64,000 bases of DNA from an uncultured Planctomycetales bacterium (lineage in GTDB: Bacteria; Planctomycetota; Phycisphaerae; SM23-33; FEN-1343), in contig CAZHRW010000198.1 of the NCBI GenBank assembly GCA_964535025.1, positions 4,300-68,299 on the forward strand, in the 5' to 3' direction. Below are positions 9,579-64,000 of the stretch, piece by piece. Below the pieces are notes generated by a model, which was not told the DNA's origin, made no database searches, and was given only the letters and a program-made list of their open reading frames with translations. How positions within the stretch are numbered: position 1 is the stretch's first letter; every line of letters starts with the position of its first letter. Made by a program: the position numbers and the translations under genes.

Positions 9579-10043
9579 TTACGCCGGGCGGAGCGCGCCG
9601 GCCGGCGCGATCAGCGTGACCGTCGCGCGGCCGGTGTCCAGTTGAAGGTGCGCGGTCACCGGCGCGGTGTCGGTGTCGGCGTGGATCCGGCCGTCGGCGA
9701 GTATGTCCGGGGCCAGAACATCGAAAACCGCCGCCTGGCCGGCCCATTCGGGCAGGAGATTCCCGCAGATCACGTTGAGCAGCTCCTTGAGCCCGTCGTG
9801 CTGCTGGTCGGCCGTCAGTTCGTCGGGATCCATCACGCCCAGCATGTTGCCGGCCAGTTCGCCCAGCATCGCCTGCTCGACCGTCAGCAGGAGCATCCCG
9901 TCGACGGGCCCGGCGAACCGTACCGAGGCGGTGACCGTCGGCGCCTCGGCCGGCGGGTCGCCCTCGGCGGGCATGGGCAGCATGAAGGCCAGCGCCTCGA
10001 AGGTTTCCTCGGCGACGCGTCGGATCAGGTTATCCAGAGACAT
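9579..10043 (-). CDS. cheX: CheX-like chemotaxis phosphatase
   Basis: About 150 aa. CheC/CheX-family pattern (FMLPMPAEG.., GELAGNMLGV, LNVICGNL). Position between cheY and cheB. Confidence 0.6.
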   Translation of the reverse strand: MSLDNLIRRVAEETFEALAFMLPMPAEGDPPAEAPTVTASVRFAGPVDGMLLLTVEQAMLGELAGNMLGVMDPDELTADQQHDGLKELLNVICGNLLPEWAGQAAVFDVLAPDILADGRIHADTDTAPVTAHLQLDTGRATVTLIAPAGALRPA

Positions 10044-28072: not shown

Positions 28073-30067
<1,995 letters not shown>

Positions 30068-30088
30068 CTATCCTTTCTTTGACCATGG

Positions 30089-30102
30089 GGCACGAACGTG
30101 CC
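30089..30102. promoter_or_regulatory. palindrome GGCACGAACGTGCC just upstream of the acs start
   Basis: Perfect 6-2-6 inverted repeat 22-35 bp upstream of the acs ATG (minus strand). Confidence 0.3.
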
Positions 30103-30254
30103 TGCCCTCGAACGATAAACCCTCCGTCCAGGCACCCCGCCGTGGCGGAGGCCTGCCGGGGGTGTCCGGCGCCTGGGACGGAACGTACAGGTTCCAGCCA
30201 TTGTGCGGCAGGGGTTGGGGTTGTGCAAACAGAAAACGCTAAAATGAGGTAAAC

Positions 30255-30270
30255 TGTGAAACGATTCACA
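30255..30270. promoter_or_regulatory. CRP/FNR-type binding site consensus TGTGA-N6-TCACA
   Basis: Exact TGTGAaacgatTCACA, extended to CTGTGAAacgaTTCACAG, in the acs/acuC divergent intergenic region. Confidence 0.4.
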
Positions 30271-30306
30271 GCAAACGGCGACCCGGCGGGCCGACAAGGC
30301 GCGATT

Positions 30307-30362
30307 TCGCAACTTTGCGACTTCGATTCCCAAGGCTGCAAATTGAATTCGCAAGCTTGCGA
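30307..30362. promoter_or_regulatory. two copies of the palindrome TCGCAA-N2-TTGCGA, 42 bp centre-to-centre (candidate operator pair)
   Basis: TCGCAActTTGCGA (30307-30320) and GAATTCGCAAgcTTGCGAATTC (30345-30366, core 30349-30362), in a locally AT-rich stretch. Confidence 0.35.
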
Positions 30363-30717
30363 ATTCGAAGAAGGGACAGAAGCACAAAGACGCCGAGCTA
30401 TCTCGGTATTGCAACTCCGAAATTGTAACCCCTTGCCATTACTCACCTGCCACCCGGCATGCCCGCCCCAAAGACGGCATCTCTTTCGGCCGCTCAATGA
30501 ACCGTTCTCCCAACCGCTTCGGCGCGGCCGGGTGTGCGAGCGGCGGGCCCGGTGACAGACCGCCTCGCACGCCCCGCGCCCCGGCGGGCAAAAACCCTTG
30601 TTCCCAGCGGGGCTGGGCGTTAAGGTTCGGGCATGTGTGGGCGGTCGGCCGGGAACCCCTTCTGTGCTGGAGAGTGAAGTGGCTGCCACATACCCAACGC
30701 GGCCTCGGGCCGCTTTC

Positions 30718-54368: not shown

Positions 54369-54547
54369 TAAAGCACGAAATCCGAAGCACGAAATCCGAA
54401 ACAAACGGAAAAACGGACAAGACGGCAAGGCCCCGAACGGGCAAGCCGGAACGCAGCTTTTCGTCTGTCTGCCGTTTGTCTTGTCGTTTGTCCGTTTTGC
54501 TGTTTCGGATTTGTTTCGTATTTCGAGCTTCGAATTTCGGATTTCTA
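54369..54547. repeat. AT-rich composite hairpin repeat, longest copy with a nested inner palindrome
   Basis: AAAGCACGAAATCCGAAGCACGAAATCCGAAACAAACGG ... CGGATTTGTTTCGTATTTCGAGCTTCGAATTTCGGATTT. Inner palindrome AAACGGACAAGACGGCA / TGCCGTTTGTCTTGTCGTTTGTCCGTTT. Abuts the stop codon at 54545-54547. Confidence 0.6.
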
Positions 54548-56952: not shown

Positions 56953-57333
56953 TCAGTTTTCCGCTTCCCACGCGTCCTCGTCCCACGCCTCGTCGTCGTC
57001 CTCGTCGTCTTCGGGGAACTCGACGGGCATCCAGTCGATGACGGTGCCGCCGCTGAGGGGGTAGTACGGGCTCACCAGCCAGTTGTGGCCGTCTTCCCAG
57101 GTGACGCGGAATTCGCGGACGATGAACGTCTTGTCCTCGTGGATGTCGTACAGTTCGTCGTCGAGGTCCGGCACGGGGTCGAACAGGTAGAGTTGTTCGA
57201 GGACCTCGGCCTTCTTGTCCTCCGGGATGATGTACTCCTCGACGACCGCGTCGTGGACCTTCAGCGGCCGCGTGGGAAAGGGGAGCTTGGCGTCGGCGTT
57301 GAACCCGGCATGGCCATCAGCGGCTCGGATCAT
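56953..57333 (-). CDS. hypothetical acidic protein (126 aa)
   Basis: AGGGAGACACCC ribosome-binding site. C-terminal tail EFPEDDEDDDEAWDEDAWEAEN. Confidence 0.45.
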   Translation of the reverse strand: MIRAADGHAGFNADAKLPFPTRPLKVHDAVVEEYIIPEDKKAEVLEQLYLFDPVPDLDDELYDIHEDKTFIVREFRVTWEDGHNWLVSPYYPLSGGTVIDWMPVEFPEDDEDDDEAWDEDAWEAEN

Positions 57334-57534: not shown

Positions 57535-57711
57535 TCACAACCCGAGCTGCTTCTCGATGAGTCGGACCAGGCTCTCTTTGATCTCGGAGTGGCGAGGCAC
57601 GGGCGCACGTCGGCCTGTGGAGGGATTGGCGTAGATGTCGTGCCGCTTGCCATGACGATGGAGATAGCAGCCGCGCTTAACAAGCGAGCGGATGAAGCTG
57701 CCTCGTTTCAC
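57535..57711 (-). CDS. hicA: HicA-family mRNA interferase toxin (58 aa; below the ORF-track cutoff)
   Basis: Hand translation: (GTG)KRGSFIRSLVKRGCYLHRHGKRHDIYANPSTGRRAPVPRHSEIKESLVRLIEKQLGL. GTG start overlaps the hicB stop (GTGTGA). Confidence 0.65.
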   Translation of the reverse strand: MKRGSFIRSLVKRGCYLHRHGKRHDIYANPSTGRRAPVPRHSEIKESLVRLIEKQLGL

Positions 57712-57914
57712 ACTTCGACCCCAAGCTCCAGCGTCTGTGCACCGGCGTGGGCAGGCTCGGACTCGGTTTCGAGCATCATTCGATAGGCATCGGCAATGTT
57801 CTCTTTCAGCTCATCCAGGGTCTCTCCCTGGCTGAACACGCCAGGCACTTCCCGGAACCTGCCGACGAACCAGTCATCGTCCTGCCAGTACTCCAGCGTG
57901 AAAACGCGTTTCAT
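57708..57914 (-). CDS. hicB: HicB-family antitoxin (N-terminal UPF0150 domain only, 68 aa)
   Basis: MKRVFTLEYWQDDDWFVGRFREVPGVFSQGETLDELKENIADAYRMMLE matches the HicB N-terminal domain pattern. Confidence 0.6.
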   Translation of the reverse strand: MKRVFTLEYWQDDDWFVGRFREVPGVFSQGETLDELKENIADAYRMMLETESEPAHAGAQTLELGVEV

Positions 57915-58201: not shown

Positions 58202-58276
58202 GCCTTCTGACTCGGGGCGACTGGATTTGAACCAGCGACCTCCTGACCCCCAGTCAGGCACGCTAACCAAGCTGCG
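58202..58276 (-). tRNA. tRNA-Pro (anticodon GGG)
   Basis: Minus-strand cloverleaf CGGGGCGTGGCGCAGCTTGGTTAGCGTGCCTGACTGGGGGTCAGGAGGTCGCTGGTTCAAATCCAGTCGCCCCGA. Confidence 0.85.
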
Positions 58277-58388
58277 CCACGCCCCGTGGGTGTCGGCGGC
58301 AGGCCGACGACCCACTATTGTACCGGCGGGGCGGCCGGGCTGCAAGATGGGGCGGTGGGCGAAAATGATGGGTTTTTTTCGCGGTCGC

Positions 58389-58763
58389 CTACGCCTCCGT
58401 GGGGGCCGGACGGCCGGTGGCGTCGGTGTAGTACCAGCGGCCGGTGTCGAAGTCGAAGTTGTAATGCTGGCGGCACTTGAAGACGGCGACCGATTCGGGC
58501 AGGTGCTGGTAGTAGTGGTCGCTGTCGTCGAAGAGGACCTCGATGCCGCGGTCGAGGATGTAGTTGTGCTTGTCGGGCGTGATCGCCAGGTGGTGGTAGC
58601 GGATGCCCAGGTCCGCCAGCAGCTTGCGTGTCGCCTCGTCGAGGGCGGGGTGGCGGTCGGTGAGGATGTGGATCTCGTGGTCGTCGACCAGCGCCGCGGT
58701 CAGTACGCGGAAGAAGACCGGGTAAGCGGTGATCGTGGCGTCGATATCGATGGCGATCCGCAT
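58389..58763 (-). CDS. HAD-superfamily hydrolase-like small protein
   Basis: Starts MRIAIDIDATI (HAD motif I DxDxT). 124 aa. Confidence 0.5.
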   Translation of the reverse strand: MRIAIDIDATITAYPVFFRVLTAALVDDHEIHILTDRHPALDEATRKLLADLGIRYHHLAITPDKHNYILDRGIEVLFDDSDHYYQHLPESVAVFKCRQHYNFDFDTGRWYYTDATGRPAPTEA

Positions 58764-58940
58764 GGGTTGCGTCTCCCTTGCCCGGCCCCCCTATTGTAGG
58801 CCGCCCGTGCGGCGCGGGCCGCGCAGGGGCACAAGGAACGTTGAACCTTGCGTTCGCTGATGATACGATGAATGACGCCCGCGACGGCCGCGGCGCGGTC
58901 CGCGCCGGCGGCGGGTGCCTCTGACGAAAACGGGAAGGCG

Positions 58941-59204
58941 ATGCGGATACAGGCATTCCAGGAGTTCATCCGGGCCAGGTACGGGCAGCGCGACGCGGAG
59001 CGCGGCACGCCGGCGACGTTTCTGTGGTTCGTCGAGGAGGTCGGCGAGCTGGCCAGTGCGCTGGCCGGGGACGACCAGGCCAACAAGGTCGAGGAATTCG
59101 CCGATGTCCTGGCATGGCTGTGCACGCTGGCGAACATCAACGGCGTGGACCTGACCGAAGCGGTCGAGAAGTACACCGTCAAGGGCGTGGAGGGGTACAA
59201 GTAG
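58941..59204 (+). CDS. MazG-like nucleotide pyrophosphohydrolase domain protein
   Basis: EFQEFIRARYGQRD...LWFVEEVGELASAL...EEFADVLAWL matches the MazG/HisE-type fold. GGGAAGG ribosome-binding site upstream of the ATG at 58941. Confidence 0.6.
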   Translation: MRIQAFQEFIRARYGQRDAERGTPATFLWFVEEVGELASALAGDDQANKVEEFADVLAWLCTLANINGVDLTEAVEKYTVKGVEGYK

Positions 59205-59275: not shown

Positions 59276-62200
59276 GTGAACGATGAAACCTATGGAGCCG
59301 ACCTGAACGAACGGGCCACCTTCGCCGAGGCGCCCCGCCGCCGTCGCCGGTGGCTGCTGCCGGCGGTCGCGGTGCTCGTCGCGGCGGCGGTGGGAATCGG
59401 CGGCTGGTGGTACGCCGCCACGCCGCACTCGGCGGCCGAGCAGCTCGAGGCGGCCGCGGCGGCGAAGGCCGATTACCTCGGGCGGGCGGGGCAACTGGCG
59501 GCGGACGAGGCGGCGGCCGAGCGCGAGAAGGTGGTCGAGGCCTACAGGCGGGTCTTCACGGCCTTCGAGGCCACCGACGAGCAGGCCGCGACGGCCCATG
59601 AGCAACTCGCTCAGCTCCACGACCACGCCGGCGACACCGCCGCCGCCCGCCGGTGGTGGACGCAATTGATCGACCGCTACGGCGAGACGGCCCAGGCCCG
59701 CGACGCCTACGAGGCGCTCATCGACAGCTACCTCGCCGAGGCCAAGTCGCTGCTCGCGGCCGACCCGGACGCCGCCGGGGAACGGCTCGACCAGGCCGTC
59801 GACGTCTGCCGGGGATTCGTCGACCGTTACGGGACCGACGACCCCGACGCGCCGGCGGTGGCCATGCGCCGCTGCCGTATCCTCGACGACCTGATCGGCG
59901 AGCCCGCCGAGGCGATCCAGGCGGCGCTGGAGGACTTCGTCGCCACCTACGGCGACAGCGACCTGGTCGATGAGGCCCTCTGGCGGCTGGGCCGCCTCCA
60001 CGAGCGGATCGCCGAGCCGCGAGCGGCGGCGGCGTATTACGAACGACTCATCAACGACTACCCCGACTCGCCCTGGCTGAAGCAGGCCGAGATCGGCCGC
60101 GCCCGTGCCGTCAGCGAGTTCGACAGCGAACGGGGCGAGGCGCTCTGGCGGGAGCTGGCGGCCAAGTACGCCGACGACCCCGAGATCGAGCACGAAGCGC
60201 GGCGTGAAGCCGAGCGGCTCGAAGCGCAACAGCAGGCCGAGGCCGATCGCGAGCAGGCCGAGACGGCCCAGCGGGACGCCCGGGACTACCGCCGCCGGCG
60301 CTACGGCGGCGGCGGGGGCGCCGGCGGGGGCGGGCCCGTTGACAGCGGCTGGGGCAAGCCCATCCCGCCCAGCGAGATGCTCCGCGACTTCATCGACCAG
60401 AAGGTCGACGCCGAGCACTATCGCCTGGAGCTCACGGTCGACCCGGACGCCCACGCGCTGGAGATCACCGGTTCGGTCGTCCTGGTCAACGGCGGCCAGG
60501 CGAAGGAGGATTTCCTCCTCATGCTCGGGCCGCTGTTCGAGCCGGGCGCGTTCGCCCTGGACGGCCGTCCGGTCGAGGTCGTCCGCCCCTCGGGCAAGGC
60601 CGAGGTGATCCAGGTGCGCCTGGACGAGCCCTGGGCGGCCGGCGCGCGAGCGACGCTGACGTTCGCCTACACCGCCACCGTTGAGCCGCTCGAATGGCCC
60701 GAGACGCTCGATGAGCAACTGCTCGATCAGCTATCGGCCCGGCGTCCGGCAGGGCTCTTGGTGGCGTCCCCGGTTCCGTCAGCCCCGCAGGGGCGGCCTG
60801 ATTCTGCCGGGGGCGTCAGCCCCCGGTGTCAGGGCTTCTTCCGCGCTGAGCCCCGGAGAGGCGACCTGATGCTCCCGGGGGCGTCAGCCCCCCGGGCCAT
60901 CGCGTCAGGATGCCGCATGGGCAAACTGAAGCCCCCGCGCCCGTCGCGCGCCCACGGCCGCACGGGGGCGCGCCTGTGGGCGGCGCAGGTGTCTGACGAC
61001 GGCGACGAGACGCCGCCCGCGCCCGAGACGATCGCCGGGCTTCTGCGGAACCCGGGTCTGCAACTGCAGATCAACGACAGCGGCTACGCCCTCAGCGGGG
61101 CGGCGTGGTATCCGGTGACGATCTTCGGCGACCTGTTCACCGCCGAGATCGCCGTGACGCTGCCGGAGGATCTGACGGTCCTGTGCAGCGGCGCCGCGGC
61201 CGGCGAGCGGACCGCCGACGGCCGGCGGACGACGACGTGGCGGTGCGAAGAGCCCTATTTCGGCCTGTATTTCGCCTACGGCCCCTACGAAAGCGCCTCG
61301 CGTGACGTGGACGGCCTGACCATCAGCGTCCACTTTTTAGCCCAACGGCGGGCCGAACAGCGGGCCGAACAGCAGGCTGATCAAGCCGCTCGCATGGAGG
61401 CGTATCTTGACGTCGCCGAGGCGATCCTCACCGAGTACATTGCGCACTTCGGCCCGTTCCCGTTCGAGAAGCTGGCGATGGCGGAGGTCAAGCTGCCGCC
61501 GATCCTCGGCGGCGTCGGCCCGGCGAGCCTGACGTTCCTGCACCACGGTGTCGTCGCGGGGCGCGAGGCGGTGCCGGTCAACCTGTTGGCCCACGAGCTC
61601 AGCCACCAGTGGTGGGGCAACCAGGTGCCGATCAACCTCATCGACGAGCGCTACAGCCAGTGGCTCTCGGAGGGCTTCGCCACCTACAGCGACGCGCTGT
61701 ACACCGAATGGAGCGAGGGCGCCGGGCCGTTCCGCGAGCACATCCGCGAGCTGGGGGGGCTTTATCTGGAGCAGTCCGCCCACGTCCGCGAGGAGGCCAT
61801 CGTCGAGACCTTCATGGGCCAGAGCCCGCTGTACCGCCCGGTCGTCTACGAGAAGGGCGCCCTGGTCCTGCACGCCCTGCGCTACGTGCTCGGCGACGAG
61901 ACCTTTTTCGAGGTGCTGCGGGAGTACGTGCGGACGTATGCGTTCACGCCGTCCACGGTGGACGATTTCCGCCGCCTGGCCGCCGAGCGGGCGGGCGAGA
62001 ATCTCGACTGGTTCTTCGACGAGTGGCTCGACCGGCCGGGCTGCCCGCACATCGAGCTGGCCGACGTCACGGTCGAGCCGGGCGACGGGGAGGGCGTCTG
62101 GACGGTCGTCGTCTCACTCGCCCAGCCGGCCCACCTCAGCCGCATGCCGATCGACGTGGTGGTCCTCGGCGACGACGGCCGCGCCCGCCGCGTGCGAACG

Positions 62201-62335
62201 GCCCTGGACCGCAAGGCCCACACGGTGAAGATCGAGGTGGCGTTCCCCGTCAAGCGCGTCGTCCTCGACCCCGACGACTGGGTCCTCCGCCGCACGGCGC
62301 CGGACGAGTGGCCGCCGGACGAGGCAGCGCGGTAA
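59276..62335 (+). CDS. TPR-repeat domain fused to an M1-family zinc aminopeptidase domain
   Basis: GTG at 59276 with a GAGGGGAG ribosome-binding site (ATG at 59261 is an alternative). TM helix then TPR repeats (about 380 aa). M1 domain with HELSHQWWGN...E gluzincin motif and GAMEN-position segment KLAMAEV. Confidence 0.7.
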   Translation: MNDETYGADLNERATFAEAPRRRRRWLLPAVAVLVAAAVGIGGWWYAATPHSAAEQLEAAAAAKADYLGRAGQLAADEAAAEREKVVEAYRRVFTAFEATDEQAATAHEQLAQLHDHAGDTAAARRWWTQLIDRYGETAQARDAYEALIDSYLAEAKSLLAADPDAAGERLDQAVDVCRGFVDRYGTDDPDAPAVAMRRCRILDDLIGEPAEAIQAALEDFVATYGDSDLVDEALWRLGRLHERIAEPRAAAAYYERLINDYPDSPWLKQAEIGRARAVSEFDSERGEALWRELAAKYADDPEIEHEARREAERLEAQQQAEADREQAETAQRDARDYRRRRYGGGGGAGGGGPVDSGWGKPIPPSEMLRDFIDQKVDAEHYRLELTVDPDAHALEITGSVVLVNGGQAKEDFLLMLGPLFEPGAFALDGRPVEVVRPSGKAEVIQVRLDEPWAAGARATLTFAYTATVEPLEWPETLDEQLLDQLSARRPAGLLVASPVPSAPQGRPDSAGGVSPRCQGFFRAEPRRGDLMLPGASAPRAIASGCRMGKLKPPRPSRAHGRTGARLWAAQVSDDGDETPPAPETIAGLLRNPGLQLQINDSGYALSGAAWYPVTIFGDLFTAEIAVTLPEDLTVLCSGAAAGERTADGRRTTTWRCEEPYFGLYFAYGPYESASRDVDGLTISVHFLAQRRAEQRAEQQADQAARMEAYLDVAEAILTEYIAHFGPFPFEKLAMAEVKLPPILGGVGPASLTFLHHGVVAGREAVPVNLLAHELSHQWWGNQVPINLIDERYSQWLSEGFATYSDALYTEWSEGAGPFREHIRELGGLYLEQSAHVREEAIVETFMGQSPLYRPVVYEKGALVLHALRYVLGDETFFEVLREYVRTYAFTPSTVDDFRRLAAERAGENLDWFFDEWLDRPGCPHIELADVTVEPGDGEGVWTVVVSLAQPAHLSRMPIDVVVLGDDGRARRVRTALDRKAHTVKIEVAFPVKRVVLDPDDWVLRRTAPDEWPPDEAAR

Positions 62336-62415
62336 GGGGACACGCATGCACGACCACATGACAACGCGTGGAACGTTGTCCGAGGGAGGCTTGTGATGAA
62401 CCTGGAGAATCCAGC

Positions 62416-64000
62416 ATGATGGACGAAGGCCAGGAGTTGGATCGGAAATCCATCCGTTGCGTGCTGGGCAAGAAGCAGGATGTGTCTGCGCTGGCGGCGG
62501 ATTGCGTCGGCTTCGCCAATGGAACGGGTGGCGTGATCCAGGTCGGCATCGAAGATGGTGATGATTTGCCGCCGGTCGGACAGACAGTGGATTCAGGGCT
62601 GGCCGAACAACTGCGCAAGCGCATCTCTCAGGTCACGGTGAACGTGGCTGTGGTGACCTCAATAGAAACGGCTTCGAATGGAGCCCAGTATGTGGAGATT
62701 CGCGTACACGGTAACCAACAGAGCGTGGCATCGACGTCTGATGGTCGTTTCTTCATTCGGGTGTCGGATGAAACCCAGCCGATCCGGGGTGATGACTTGA
62801 CGCGTCTAATGGCGGACCGCGGCTCGTTCATGTGGGAATTGCAGCCGCTCCGTCGTCTGCCGGTGGGAAGTCATGATTCAGAGAAAGCGCATGCGTTTTG
62901 CGATCAGATCCGGGCATCCGATCGGGTGACCGAGTTCGTGAAGCAGAAGTCGGATATCGAGCTTCTGGAACACTACTTCATGGTTCGTAATGGCGTGCTT
63001 ACGCAATTGGGCGTGCTGTGGATCGGCCGGCGCGAAGATCGTGCGGCGTTGCTGTATGCTCCGTCGCTCCAATGCGTCAAGTATGACGAACAAAGCCGAA
63101 AGGTTCGTAAGCAGACGTGGGACGATTACGCCTTGAACCCCATGGAGATGATCTCCGCAGTCTGGAACGATGTTCCGGAATGGCGCGAGAGCTACGAGAT
63201 GCCCGCAGGCCTCTTCCGCACGACCGTTCCACACTATGAAGAGGTCGTCGTTCGCGAGTTGCTCGCCAATGCGCTGGTCCATCGGCCCTATACGCAGCGA
63301 GGCGACGTTTTCGTTAATCTATTTCCGGATCGAATGGAAGTTCACAATCCGGGTCTTCTGCCAGTGGGCGTCACGCCTCGGAACATTCTGCATGTGACTA
63401 GTCAAAGGAATCCACATCTTGCGAAGGTCTTCTATGACCTGAAACTGATGGAACGGGAAGGTAGTGGGTTCGACCGGATGTACGAGGCGCTGGTCACAAC
63501 GGGACGGCCCGTGCCGGATGTAAAGGAAGGTGATGATCGCGTTGTGATTACCGTTCGCAAGCAGATGCTGAAGCCCGAGATCGTGGACTTCATGGCCAAG
63601 GTGGACCAGACGTTCCAACCCACACAGAGGGAACTCATCTGTCTGGGCTTGGTGGCCCAACACGGCGCGGTTACCGCACTCGACCTGGAGAAAGAACTTG
63701 CGCTGCGAAATGCGCAGGAGTTGAAGCACTGGCTGGGTCACCTGCGCGATTGGGCCTTGGTCAGCACCCGAGGCAAGACGAAGGGTATGGAGTATTTCGT
63801 TGAGCCCGCCGTGCTCCGGAAATTGGAGTTCAAGGGCACCACGACACTGCGTGGCATCGAGAAACATCGCCTGCAGGAGCTGATCCTGCAGGATCTGAGC
63901 ATCTATCGCGAGGGAGCGATCAGTGAGATTCATGAACGAATAGGCGCGGAAATCGCCCGCCGGAAGGTCCAACGTGCCTTGGCCGACTTGGTGATCGATG
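62416..64000 (+). CDS. AlbA_2 (Schlafen-like) DNA-binding domain plus HATPase_c_4 domain protein (RecG-C-terminal-like transcriptional-regulator ATPase family), 3' partial
   Basis: Hand translation from ATGATGGAC: MMDEGQELDRKSIRCVLGKKQDVSALAADCVGFANGTGGVIQVGIEDG... (AlbA_2-type N-terminus). Then ..RELLANALVHRPY..NPG.L..G.....L..TSQRNPHLAKVFYDLKLMEREGSGFDRMY (HATPase_c_4-type). Open to the window end, which is why it is absent from the complete-ORF track. Confidence 0.6.
   Translation, partial: MMDEGQELDRKSIRCVLGKKQDVSALAADCVGFANGTGGVIQVGIEDGDDLPPVGQTVDSGLAEQLRKRISQVTVNVAVVTSIETASNGAQYVEIRVHGNQQSVASTSDGRFFIRVSDETQPIRGDDLTRLMADRGSFMWELQPLRRLPVGSHDSEKAHAFCDQIRASDRVTEFVKQKSDIELLEHYFMVRNGVLTQLGVLWIGRREDRAALLYAPSLQCVKYDEQSRKVRKQTWDDYALNPMEMISAVWNDVPEWRESYEMPAGLFRTTVPHYEEVVVRELLANALVHRPYTQRGDVFVNLFPDRMEVHNPGLLPVGVTPRNILHVTSQRNPHLAKVFYDLKLMEREGSGFDRMYEALVTTGRPVPDVKEGDDRVVITVRKQMLKPEIVDFMAKVDQTFQPTQRELICLGLVAQHGAVTALDLEKELALRNAQELKHWLGHLRDWALVSTRGKTKGMEYFVEPAVLRKLEFKGTTTLRGIEKHRLQELILQDLSIYREGAISEIHERIGAEIARRKVQRALADLVID

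Follow-up and report, generated by a model that had tools for sequence, protein, structure and literature searches.

A low-GC islet with one horizontally acquired gene for a predicted stand-alone Schlatpase with tandem winged helices in an uncultured Planctomycetales bacterium

Does the abrupt fall in guanine-cytosine (GC) content at the right end of a 64,000-nucleotide stretch of DNA from an uncultured Planctomycetales bacterium (GenBank assembly GCA_964535025.1, contig CAZHRW010000198.1, positions 4,300 to 68,299; the whole stretch is hereafter the window) mark the edge of an acquired defence island, as an initial annotation made from the letters alone had proposed for positions 62336-64000? 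The answer obtained here is that the low-GC tract (62336 to about 64300) is an islet of about 2 kb with one horizontally acquired gene and no edge of a larger island, a conclusion drawn because of the GC profile and the gene content of the parent contig. From sequence and structure modelling, the product of this gene is identified as a stand-alone Schlatpase-wHTH, i.e. a Schlafen (SLFN) nuclease domain followed by a GHKL ATPase domain and two winged helices (wHTH, winged helix-turn-helix). The best explanation taken whole, namely a single-gene islet whose Schlatpase-wHTH product would act as an ATP-gated tRNase in abortive infection, is given a probability of roughly 0.6. What it says on structure and evolution (one gene in the islet, its identity as a Schlatpase-wHTH, an old insertion and origin from a clade associated with restriction-modification (R-M) systems) is given high confidence, and the mechanism suggested by homology for the window copy has slightly better than even odds.

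The compositional signal was confirmed. Positions 62336-64000 have a GC content of 0.572 against 0.693 +/- 0.029 (z = -4.2) in all other 1,665-nt segments of the window and a 7-kb downstream extension (71 kb together), and they form the GC minimum of these 71 kb, the second-lowest 1,665-nt segment having 0.626. In bins of 100 nt the GC content falls from 0.72-0.75 at 62101-62300 to 0.51-0.64 from 62301 on, and the GC content at third codon positions (GC3) is 0.67 in the Schlafen gene of the tract vs 0.88-0.96 in five neighbouring genes. The left edge of the islet, read directly from the sequence, is an 80-nt intergenic spacer (62336..62415, + strand) lying 3' of an M1-peptidase gene, whose stop codon TAA at 62333-62335 stands directly before it; a GGAG Shine-Dalgarno-like motif is found within this spacer, 9 nt 5' of the ATG at 62416.

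The gene that begins at this ATG is cut by the end of the window, and its remainder was recovered by a protein search, which returned P0001, a protein of 564 aa whose identity to the window gene's 528 residues is 100%. P0001 is encoded on a 75,321-bp Joint Genome Institute (JGI) metagenome contig (3300001533, MLSed_10000114; here L081) whose overlap of 11,585 bases with the window contains no mismatch, and window coordinates equal L081 coordinates + 52,415. It can be deciphered from this contig that the low GC does continue beyond the window, as had been expected, and that it does so for only about 300 nt, running some 190 nt past the gene end at 64110 and stopping near window-equivalent 64300. 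About 300 nt beyond the window end the GC content is again 0.72-0.78, and the next 5 kb are filled by a high-GC operon found in many genomes, which encodes first a DUF4350-like protein (732 aa, signal peptide) and then an ABC ATPase and an ABC-2 permease and lies directly downstream of the Schlafen gene in the same orientation. No integrase, recombinase or other mobility gene was present among the called genes of the 10 kb upstream and 7 kb downstream. A multi-gene foreign tract is therefore absent, the islet amounting to a single gene in about 2 kb, and a return to high GC with neither mobility nor defence genes is essentially what the initial annotation had named as evidence contrary to its own proposal.

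At its two ends the islet has only short, imperfect direct and inverted matches at chance level; Rfam gave nothing credible on the islet and its junctions; the sigma-70 promoter scan found no promoter-like site and the terminator-like sites occur at shuffle expectation, both scans being uninformative for a Planctomycete. The one candidate for a hidden partner, a 50-aa open reading frame (ORF) in the low-GC tail on L081, is not conserved in the orthologous genome described below, and no hsdS or hsdR remnants were found in the islet tails. As a separate observation on the parent contig, a second assembly (L082, Logan SRR1179191) is identical to L081 through the Schlafen gene and diverges inside the DUF4350-like gene, from about 3.85 kb after the Schlafen gene start (350 mismatches in the last ~490 nt compared), which is either strain-level variation or an assembly join.

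What does the gene encode? A single + strand frame (62416..64000, window-truncated) is open and stop-free for 528 aa from ATG 62416 to the window end, and the full gene occupies window-equivalent 62416-64110 (L081 10001-11695). Because most of 73 homologues begin at M1/M2 encoded from ATG 62416, translation is unlikely to start at the in-frame GTG found further upstream, at 62368. The Schlafen (AlbA_2) nuclease domain is placed at aa 1-130 (62416..62805, +) by Pfam, residue conservation and Foldseek, and Pfam SLFN_AlbA_2 (PF04326) matches aa 4-123 with E 1e-9, above the gathering score. The GHKL (Bergerat-fold) ATPase domain at about aa 191-385 (62986..63570, +) is delimited by Pfam, conservation, Foldseek and the ratio of nonsynonymous to synonymous substitution rates (dN/dS), HATPase_c_4 (PF13749) matching aa 297-379 with E 4e-20. 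Both domains had been recognised from the letters at the outset, and their succession in one polypeptide is the Schlatpase order. A check for a C-terminal helix-turn-helix (HTH) had also been suggested; no Pfam HTH was found in this region at E < 0.05, and the AlphaFold2 model (built from 54 homologues, mean predicted local distance difference test score (pLDDT) 83.8) contains two winged helices there. This tandem winged-helix region (63571..64000, +, cut at aa 528), assigned from AlphaFold2 secondary structure, pLDDT and Foldseek, comprises wH1 at about aa 386-470 and wH2 at about aa 471-547; beyond the window end the protein closes with 17 disordered residues.

Structural comparison corroborates this three-part reading. 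Against the PDB the full-length model matched only DIP2311 (3LMM; E 3e-27), an uncharacterised protein that was also detected by the sequence profile, over the GHKL core (E 1e-17). The N-terminus resembles the SLFN13 N'-domain, SLFN11, SLFN14 and SLFN5, which together with the motifs supports the Schlafen relationship put forward earlier; the centre resembles the VanS CA domain, PDK4 and PDK2 (GHKL/Bergerat), and the C-terminus the winged helices of AlkX/YcaQ, RPC62, cullin WH, SelB, ScpB and ESCRT-II. The name "ATP-dependent DNA helicase RecG", used by JGI and several GenBank records, would make the protein a RecG-like ATP-dependent DNA helicase, and the description of PF13749 itself reads "Putative ATP-dependent DNA helicase recG C-terminal". 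Pfam finds no DEAD, Helicase_C or RecA-like domain and the central fold is GHKL/Bergerat, so that this identity has a next to negligible chance of being correct. The name is regarded as a legacy misnomer, there being no superfamily 2 (SF2) helicase core by Pfam. NCBIfam holds no family for the window protein, and PADLOC (PADLOC-DB 2023, older than the papers on prokaryotic Schlafen (pSlfn) proteins) gave only weak local matches to models associated with prokaryotic Argonautes (pAgo) over the GHKL region, because the GHKL module is shared.

The residues expected of a working enzyme are in place. The nuclease-type motif is present as E4-GQEL-D9-R-K11, that is Ex4(E/D)xK, and is followed by the Schlafen box C30-V-G-F-A-N35 and by a Gly/hydrophobic core, G38-G39-VIQV-G44-I-E46-D47. 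Across the 73 homologues (about 45-88% identity, many phyla) E4 is kept in 71/73, D or E at position 9 in 72/73, K11 in 72/73 and E46 in 73/73; within the box the counts are 66/73 for F33, 69/73 for A34 and 72/73 for N35, and G38-G39 and G44 are near-invariant. The GHKL motifs (N-box E281-LLA-N285, D297, H310-N-P-G313 and E346-x-E348-G-S-G351, with the glycine-rich ATP-lid residues in the last two) belong to the best-conserved domain of the protein, in which E281, N285, H289, D297, P312, G313, E346, E348, G349 and G351 are all found in 73/73. Because the diagnostic residues are near-invariant in these homologues, both the nuclease and the ATP-binding sites of the window protein are judged from its sequence to be intact.

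The age of the islet could be addressed through a second genome. The nearest relative of the protein (P0002, 87-88% amino acid identity) is encoded in the Planctomycetota metagenome-assembled genome GCA_048622735.1 (L084), in a slot with the order tRNA-Pro, 121-124-aa gene, MazG-like, M1 peptidase, Schlafen gene, DUF4350-like, ABC and permease. The flanking proteins of L081 and L084 are 68-94% identical, a range that brackets the Schlafen protein, and GC3 of the Schlafen gene is 0.67 in both vs 0.88-0.97 in the neighbours. Nucleotide homology is unbroken at 80% over 2,327 nt, from 20 nt before the Schlafen start codon through the gene, the low-GC tail and the right junction into the DUF4350-like gene; on the left it is broken between window-equivalent 62366 and 62396, where L084 has about 225 extra nt. 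This continuity points to one insertion between the M1-peptidase gene and the DUF4350-like/ABC operon that is older than the split of the two Planctomycetota lineages. The 564-codon ORF is intact in both, with 16% of nucleotide positions different, and dN/dS vs the L084 orthologue is 0.108 for the whole gene and 0.053 for the GHKL domain, the lowest of the gene, values indicative of strong purifying selection and of no decay.

No true empty site was among the 80 loci obtained in one metagenome scan that used the ABC ATPase as its anchor. L081 and L084 are the sole loci of this set with the M1 peptidase; more distant genomes have MazG directly upstream of the DUF4350-like/ABC operon, with neither M1 peptidase nor Schlafen gene, and one locus with an 88% identical ABC protein (L088) has a different upstream context. 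The small gene of the syntenic slot, at 58389-58763 (-) in the window, encodes a conserved 124-aa protein with no Pfam match that is 91% identical in L084, and it is divergently paired with the MazG-like pyrophosphohydrolase gene at 58872-59204 (+).

The initial annotation had also pointed to a tRNA-Pro gene and a hicBA module about 4 kb away. The tRNA-Pro(GGG) gene does lie at 58212-58286 (-), 4.05 kb upstream of the islet, and in the hicA, hicB pair at 57535-57914 hicA is recognised by Pfam (E 3e-11), hicB being only a weak, sub-threshold match (E 7e-5). The connection with the islet was not supported: the 4 kb between are occupied by genes of host composition (MazG-like and M1 peptidase; GC3 0.91) that are syntenic in L084, and no repeat of the 3' or 5' end of tRNA-Pro with <=2 mismatches exists in the 71 kb. 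The hicBA module sits on the 3' side of tRNA-Pro in a GC dip of 0.60-0.65 (a dip that also covers 56953-57333), and L084 is without hicBA except for a 68-nt hicA remnant at 91% identity; judged by this comparison, hicBA is a small variable spot at tRNA-Pro, independent of the Schlafen islet.

A second, decayed tRNA-Pro(GGG)-like sequence at window-equivalent 64354-64423 (+; L081 11939-12008), detected by relaxed ARAGORN and the L084 match, lies directly right of the islet, before the DUF4350-like gene. This relic retains a D-arm remnant, an intact-looking anticodon arm and a T-loop and is without a good acceptor or T stem. In L084 a 35-nt stretch of it (9963-9997) is 91% identical to tRNA-Pro positions 29-63 (E 1.3e-8), and in L081 it is a degenerate Pro(GGG) cloverleaf by relaxed ARAGORN only; the Rfam tRNA model does not score it. 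The relic may be the footprint of an old tRNA-associated event, and, more speculatively, it may record how a lone accessory gene left an R-M operon and was taken up at a tRNA locus.

These observations bear directly on the possibility of a larger genomic or defence island, acquired recently by integration near tRNA-Pro, with the tract as its edge and more, uncharacterised defence genes outside the window. The Schlafen gene's foreign composition, the occurrence of its family in defence loci and on conjugative plasmids, the relic abutting the right end of the islet and the variability of hicBA beside the real tRNA-Pro between genomes would all suit such an edge. Against it stand the low GC that ends about 300 nt past the window and gives way to 5 kb of conserved high-GC operon, the lack of any integrase, defence match or hsd gene in the flanks searched, and an insertion old enough to be syntenic in L084. 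The relic is moreover in the opposite orientation to the real tRNA-Pro, which lies 6 kb upstream with host-composition genes between, and tRNA genes are not enriched beside the relatives' Schlafen genes. The island edge is accordingly considered very improbable.

Where the family usually resides was assessed by clustering the ORFs within 6 kb of the Schlafen gene in 80 loci of GTDB genomes. The clustering yielded three partner families, each encoded on the strand of the Schlafen gene; by Pfam they are HsdM (N6_Mtase/HsdM_N), HsdS (Methylase_S) and HsdR (HSDR_N/ResIII/EcoEI_R_C), the usual order being hsdM-hsdS-X-hsdR with the Schlafen gene as X. In the 47 well-flanked loci (>=3 kb on both sides of the Schlafen gene), hsd genes occur in 26 and the full M+S+R complement in 23; in other loci the Schlafen gene adjoins type IIG Eco57I/MmeI-like enzymes or ResIII proteins. 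An annotated Aeromonas IncU conjugative plasmid (NZ_CP121836) has X-hsdM-hsdS-hsdR, and Sinorhizobium pSinB has an orphan copy among transporter genes. The relatives' Schlafen gene is usually lower in GC than its flanks (median -0.024, extreme -0.17).

The closest non-syntenic relative (80% identity; L086) lies between hsdS and a helicase/DprA-like pair, after which comes hsdR. This pair (L086 2541-6012) consists of a 715-aa DEAD/ResIII/Helicase_C protein and a 440-aa DprA-like protein (DNA_processg_A + LDcluster4), and, inserted with the Schlafen gene, it is possibly a further accessory module of the type I R-M operon. In a 72% identical relative (L087) the start of the Schlafen gene is overlapped by 4 nt by a PglX-like methyltransferase gene (Eco57I/MmeI_Mtase/DUF7008), and the upstream region (L087 1-8004) holds a PglW-like protein with NERD and tandem Ser/Thr-kinase domains (>1,400 aa), an 89-aa ORF and the PglX-like gene, a setting that by gene content is Pgl/BREX type 2-like. 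The recurrence of the family in defence loci was thus upheld, with relatives in type I R-M, type IIG and Pgl/BREX-like operons. The neighbours of the relatives are entirely unlike those of the window copy, which, judging from its sequence relationships, descends from an R-M-embedded, horizontally mobile clade.

Such an origin raises the question of whether the window copy is an accessory gene left stranded by a former R-M/BREX operon, now functionless and decaying. A remnant of this kind would explain why its closest relatives sit within type I R-M or Pgl-like operons, why a 77% identical relative (L001) has only an HsdR fragment downstream, and why partner genes are absent from the 71 kb. An ORF intact in two lineages, a dN/dS of 0.11 (GHKL 0.05), the retention of all catalytic residues and the want of detectable hsdS/hsdR remnants in the islet tails speak against decay, and we regard it as highly unlikely.

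The initial annotation had called the system uncharacterised, a label that does not apply to the kind of protein, whose class was described in 2026 papers. A catalogue of 5,930 pSlfn proteins reports Slfn-HisKinase (34%) and Slfn-HisKinase-HTH (19.2%) as the commonest architectures, Ex4(E/D)xK as the catalytic motif, and tRNA cleavage and defence against phage as activities; 69.6% of pSlfn lie within 10 kb of a defence gene and 30.4% do not (Perez Taboada et al., Nat Microbiol 2026, PMC13056530). The term "Schlatpase" denotes the SLFN+GHKL unit, found in 60,692 of 103,533 prokaryotic SLFN proteins; Schlatpases are mostly small proteins, with or without a C-terminal HTH, their module is exchanged with type I R-M systems, and they are described with a Schlafen "SAFAN" box, a Gly/hydrophobic core and, in the GHKL domain, Glu and Asn as the pair coordinating Mg and the gamma-phosphate (Kuzmenko et al., bioRxiv 10.64898/2026.05.29.728809). 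Schlafen-minimal histidine kinase (HK)-wHTH proteins have further been described as "backup suicidal effectors" tied to BREX loci in at least 1,017 taxa (PMC12839542).

By its sequence features the window protein belongs to this described Schlatpase / pSlfn HisKinase-HTH class. With the stand-alone Schlatpase-HTH proteins it shares the domain order, Pfam families, nuclease motif, FAN box and GHKL E...N site, as well as a wide phyletic pattern that is prone to horizontal gene transfer and exchanged with type I R-M; it differs in being an orphan that is kept vertically at one chromosomal site. No known defence gene was recognised within 10 kb of it (PADLOC on 10 flanking proteins, hsd search over 71 kb), the sole conflict-type module being hicBA, 4.5 kb upstream, and it is located neither within nor adjacent to a core R-M/BREX operon. 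With the BREX-embedded effectors (PMC12839542) it has an identical architecture, the Schlafen, minimal HK and wHTH parts all being predicted in the window protein, and the 72% relative beside PglX-like and NERD-Ser/Thr kinase genes belongs to the same picture. The window copy itself has no BREX/R-M genes in 71 kb and therefore cannot be a "backup" to a linked primary system.

Four further systems help to place it. The full-length architecture is seen in only one solved structure, that of DIP2311 from Corynebacterium diphtheriae (3LMM; 20% identity), a distant relative and a structural-genomics entry with no assigned function. Mammalian SLFN11/SLFN13 share the nuclease-lobe fold and the catalytic acidic motif (Foldseek 5yd0, 7zel; weak SLFN12 profile match); they differ in having two lobes per chain and, in SLFN11, a C-terminal helicase, whereas the bacterial domain is single-lobed and carries a GHKL ATPase. 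PrrC, the latent anticodon nuclease whose gene lies in the EcoprrI type I R-M locus, has by analogy the same kind of R-M-operon position as most relatives (hsdS-X-hsdR), and differs in its unrelated fold (an ABC-type NTPase with its own nuclease domain) and in that the window copy has no Hsd partner; it is the founding example of antiviral tRNA cleavage (as cited in PMC13056530). RzAgo, an SLFN-pAgo fusion of Runella zeae, has the Schlatpase module and serves as the mechanistic template: ATP binding leads to a tetramer in which paired single-lobed SLFN domains form a mammalian-like nuclease that cleaves tRNA (bioRxiv 10.64898/2026.05.29.728809). The window protein lacks its PAZ/MID/PIWI core and guide-dependent sensing and has two C-terminal winged helices instead; E281/N285 are equated with RzAgo E314/N318 by motif spacing, not by structural superposition.

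By homology to these characterised Schlafen systems, binding of ATP to the GHKL domain would bring about a dimer or tetramer, and the oligomer would pair single-lobed Schlafen domains into an active two-lobed nuclease with an RNA-binding cleft. A trigger, probably sensed via the winged-helix region or a protein partner, would then license metal-dependent cleavage of tRNA, and the resulting shutdown of translation would abort phage infection. In the R-M/BREX-embedded relatives the protein would, by analogy with the position and logic of PrrC, be a second-line effector that acts once the primary system has been evaded. The orphan window copy would have to sense its trigger itself, and the tandem winged helices are the only candidate sensor.

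Several results weigh against this explanation. Among 7 tested systems only 2 protected E. coli, these being DUF262 and Ig-like fusions, and the HisKinase-fusion class, which had been selected for testing too, is not among the two (PMC13056530); the stand-alone HTH class has no published activity, the characterised members being pAgo, Ig-like, DUF262 and Csx15 fusions. Defence neighbours of the window copy were not found: hsd homologues are absent from the 71 kb, and PADLOC on 10 flanking proteins was empty except for a partial, generic ABC-ATPase similarity of the transporter ATPase. Defence genes less typically stay for so long, by vertical descent, at one site in the chromosome, and a gene with a housekeeping or regulatory role could be retained in this way as well. 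Lastly, the synonymous rate (dS) of the Schlafen gene is 0.71 vs 0.15-0.40 in its flanks; either weaker codon bias or recombinational replacement of the allele may account for this.

The main rival that these points bring forward is a DNA-binding transcriptional regulator, in which the winged helices would bind an operator and the ATPase and AlbA_2 domains would sense a ligand or nucleic acid and would not act as a nuclease. Such a protein would control R-M/BREX expression in the relatives and, here, the adjacent exporter operon or other genes, in line with the older COG2865-type annotation "predicted transcriptional regulator with HTH". Two C-terminal winged helices whose structural neighbours include the DNA-binding AlkX/YcaQ and ScpB, an orphan copy directly upstream of and co-oriented with the DUF4350-like/ABC operon, long-term vertical retention, and the 30.4% of pSlfn genes that have no defence neighbour (PMC13056530) would be in keeping with it. 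The near-invariance across phyla of E-x4-(D/E)-x-K and E46 is, however, unexpected for a mere binding module, and homologous Schlafen domains are demonstrated tRNases. Nor is the exporter linkage conserved, as distant genomes have the operon without the Schlafen gene and the relatives have other neighbours. Weakened by the invariance of the nuclease motif and the lack of a conserved operon linkage, the regulator is regarded as unlikely.

The orphan state invites a further, only tentative proposal, to which we would give well under even odds: orphan Schlatpase-wHTH genes like the window copy may be autonomous single-gene systems with a winged-helix sensor, for example for foreign or damaged nucleic acid, or may through domestication have acquired a non-immune role, be it in tRNA turnover or in stress-induced translational shutdown. 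The autonomous version includes stable, long-lasting inheritance outside defence loci under strong purifying selection.

A few local features of the region stand apart from the islet. An imperfect hairpin of about 170 nt at 54376-54539 lies in an intergenic GC dip (0.585), with 30-nt arms that are 90% complementary, nested 18-nt arms at 89% and a tandem 14-mer, AAGCACGAAATCCG, x2. A GC dip of 0.626 extends over 1.7 kb near 28.9 kb (window ~28851-30500), and an intergenic dip of 0.52 follows the ABC-2 permease gene (L081 16900-17350, window-equivalent 69315-69765).

Overall, the islet adds one long-retained member to a class that is abundant (about 60,000 proteins) and only recently recognised, in which Slfn-GHKL-wHTH is the commonest architecture and has no demonstrated activity or trigger. 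The preferred home in its clade, between hsdS and hsdR as with PrrC in EcoprrI, suggests a guard or backup relationship, and the persistence of orphan copies under purifying selection with no linked R-M/BREX implies that the protein can work, or be useful, alone. Given the 2026 literature neither point is a major surprise; the orphan, long-retained state is mildly interesting and fits the ~30% of pSlfn genes reported outside defence neighbourhoods.

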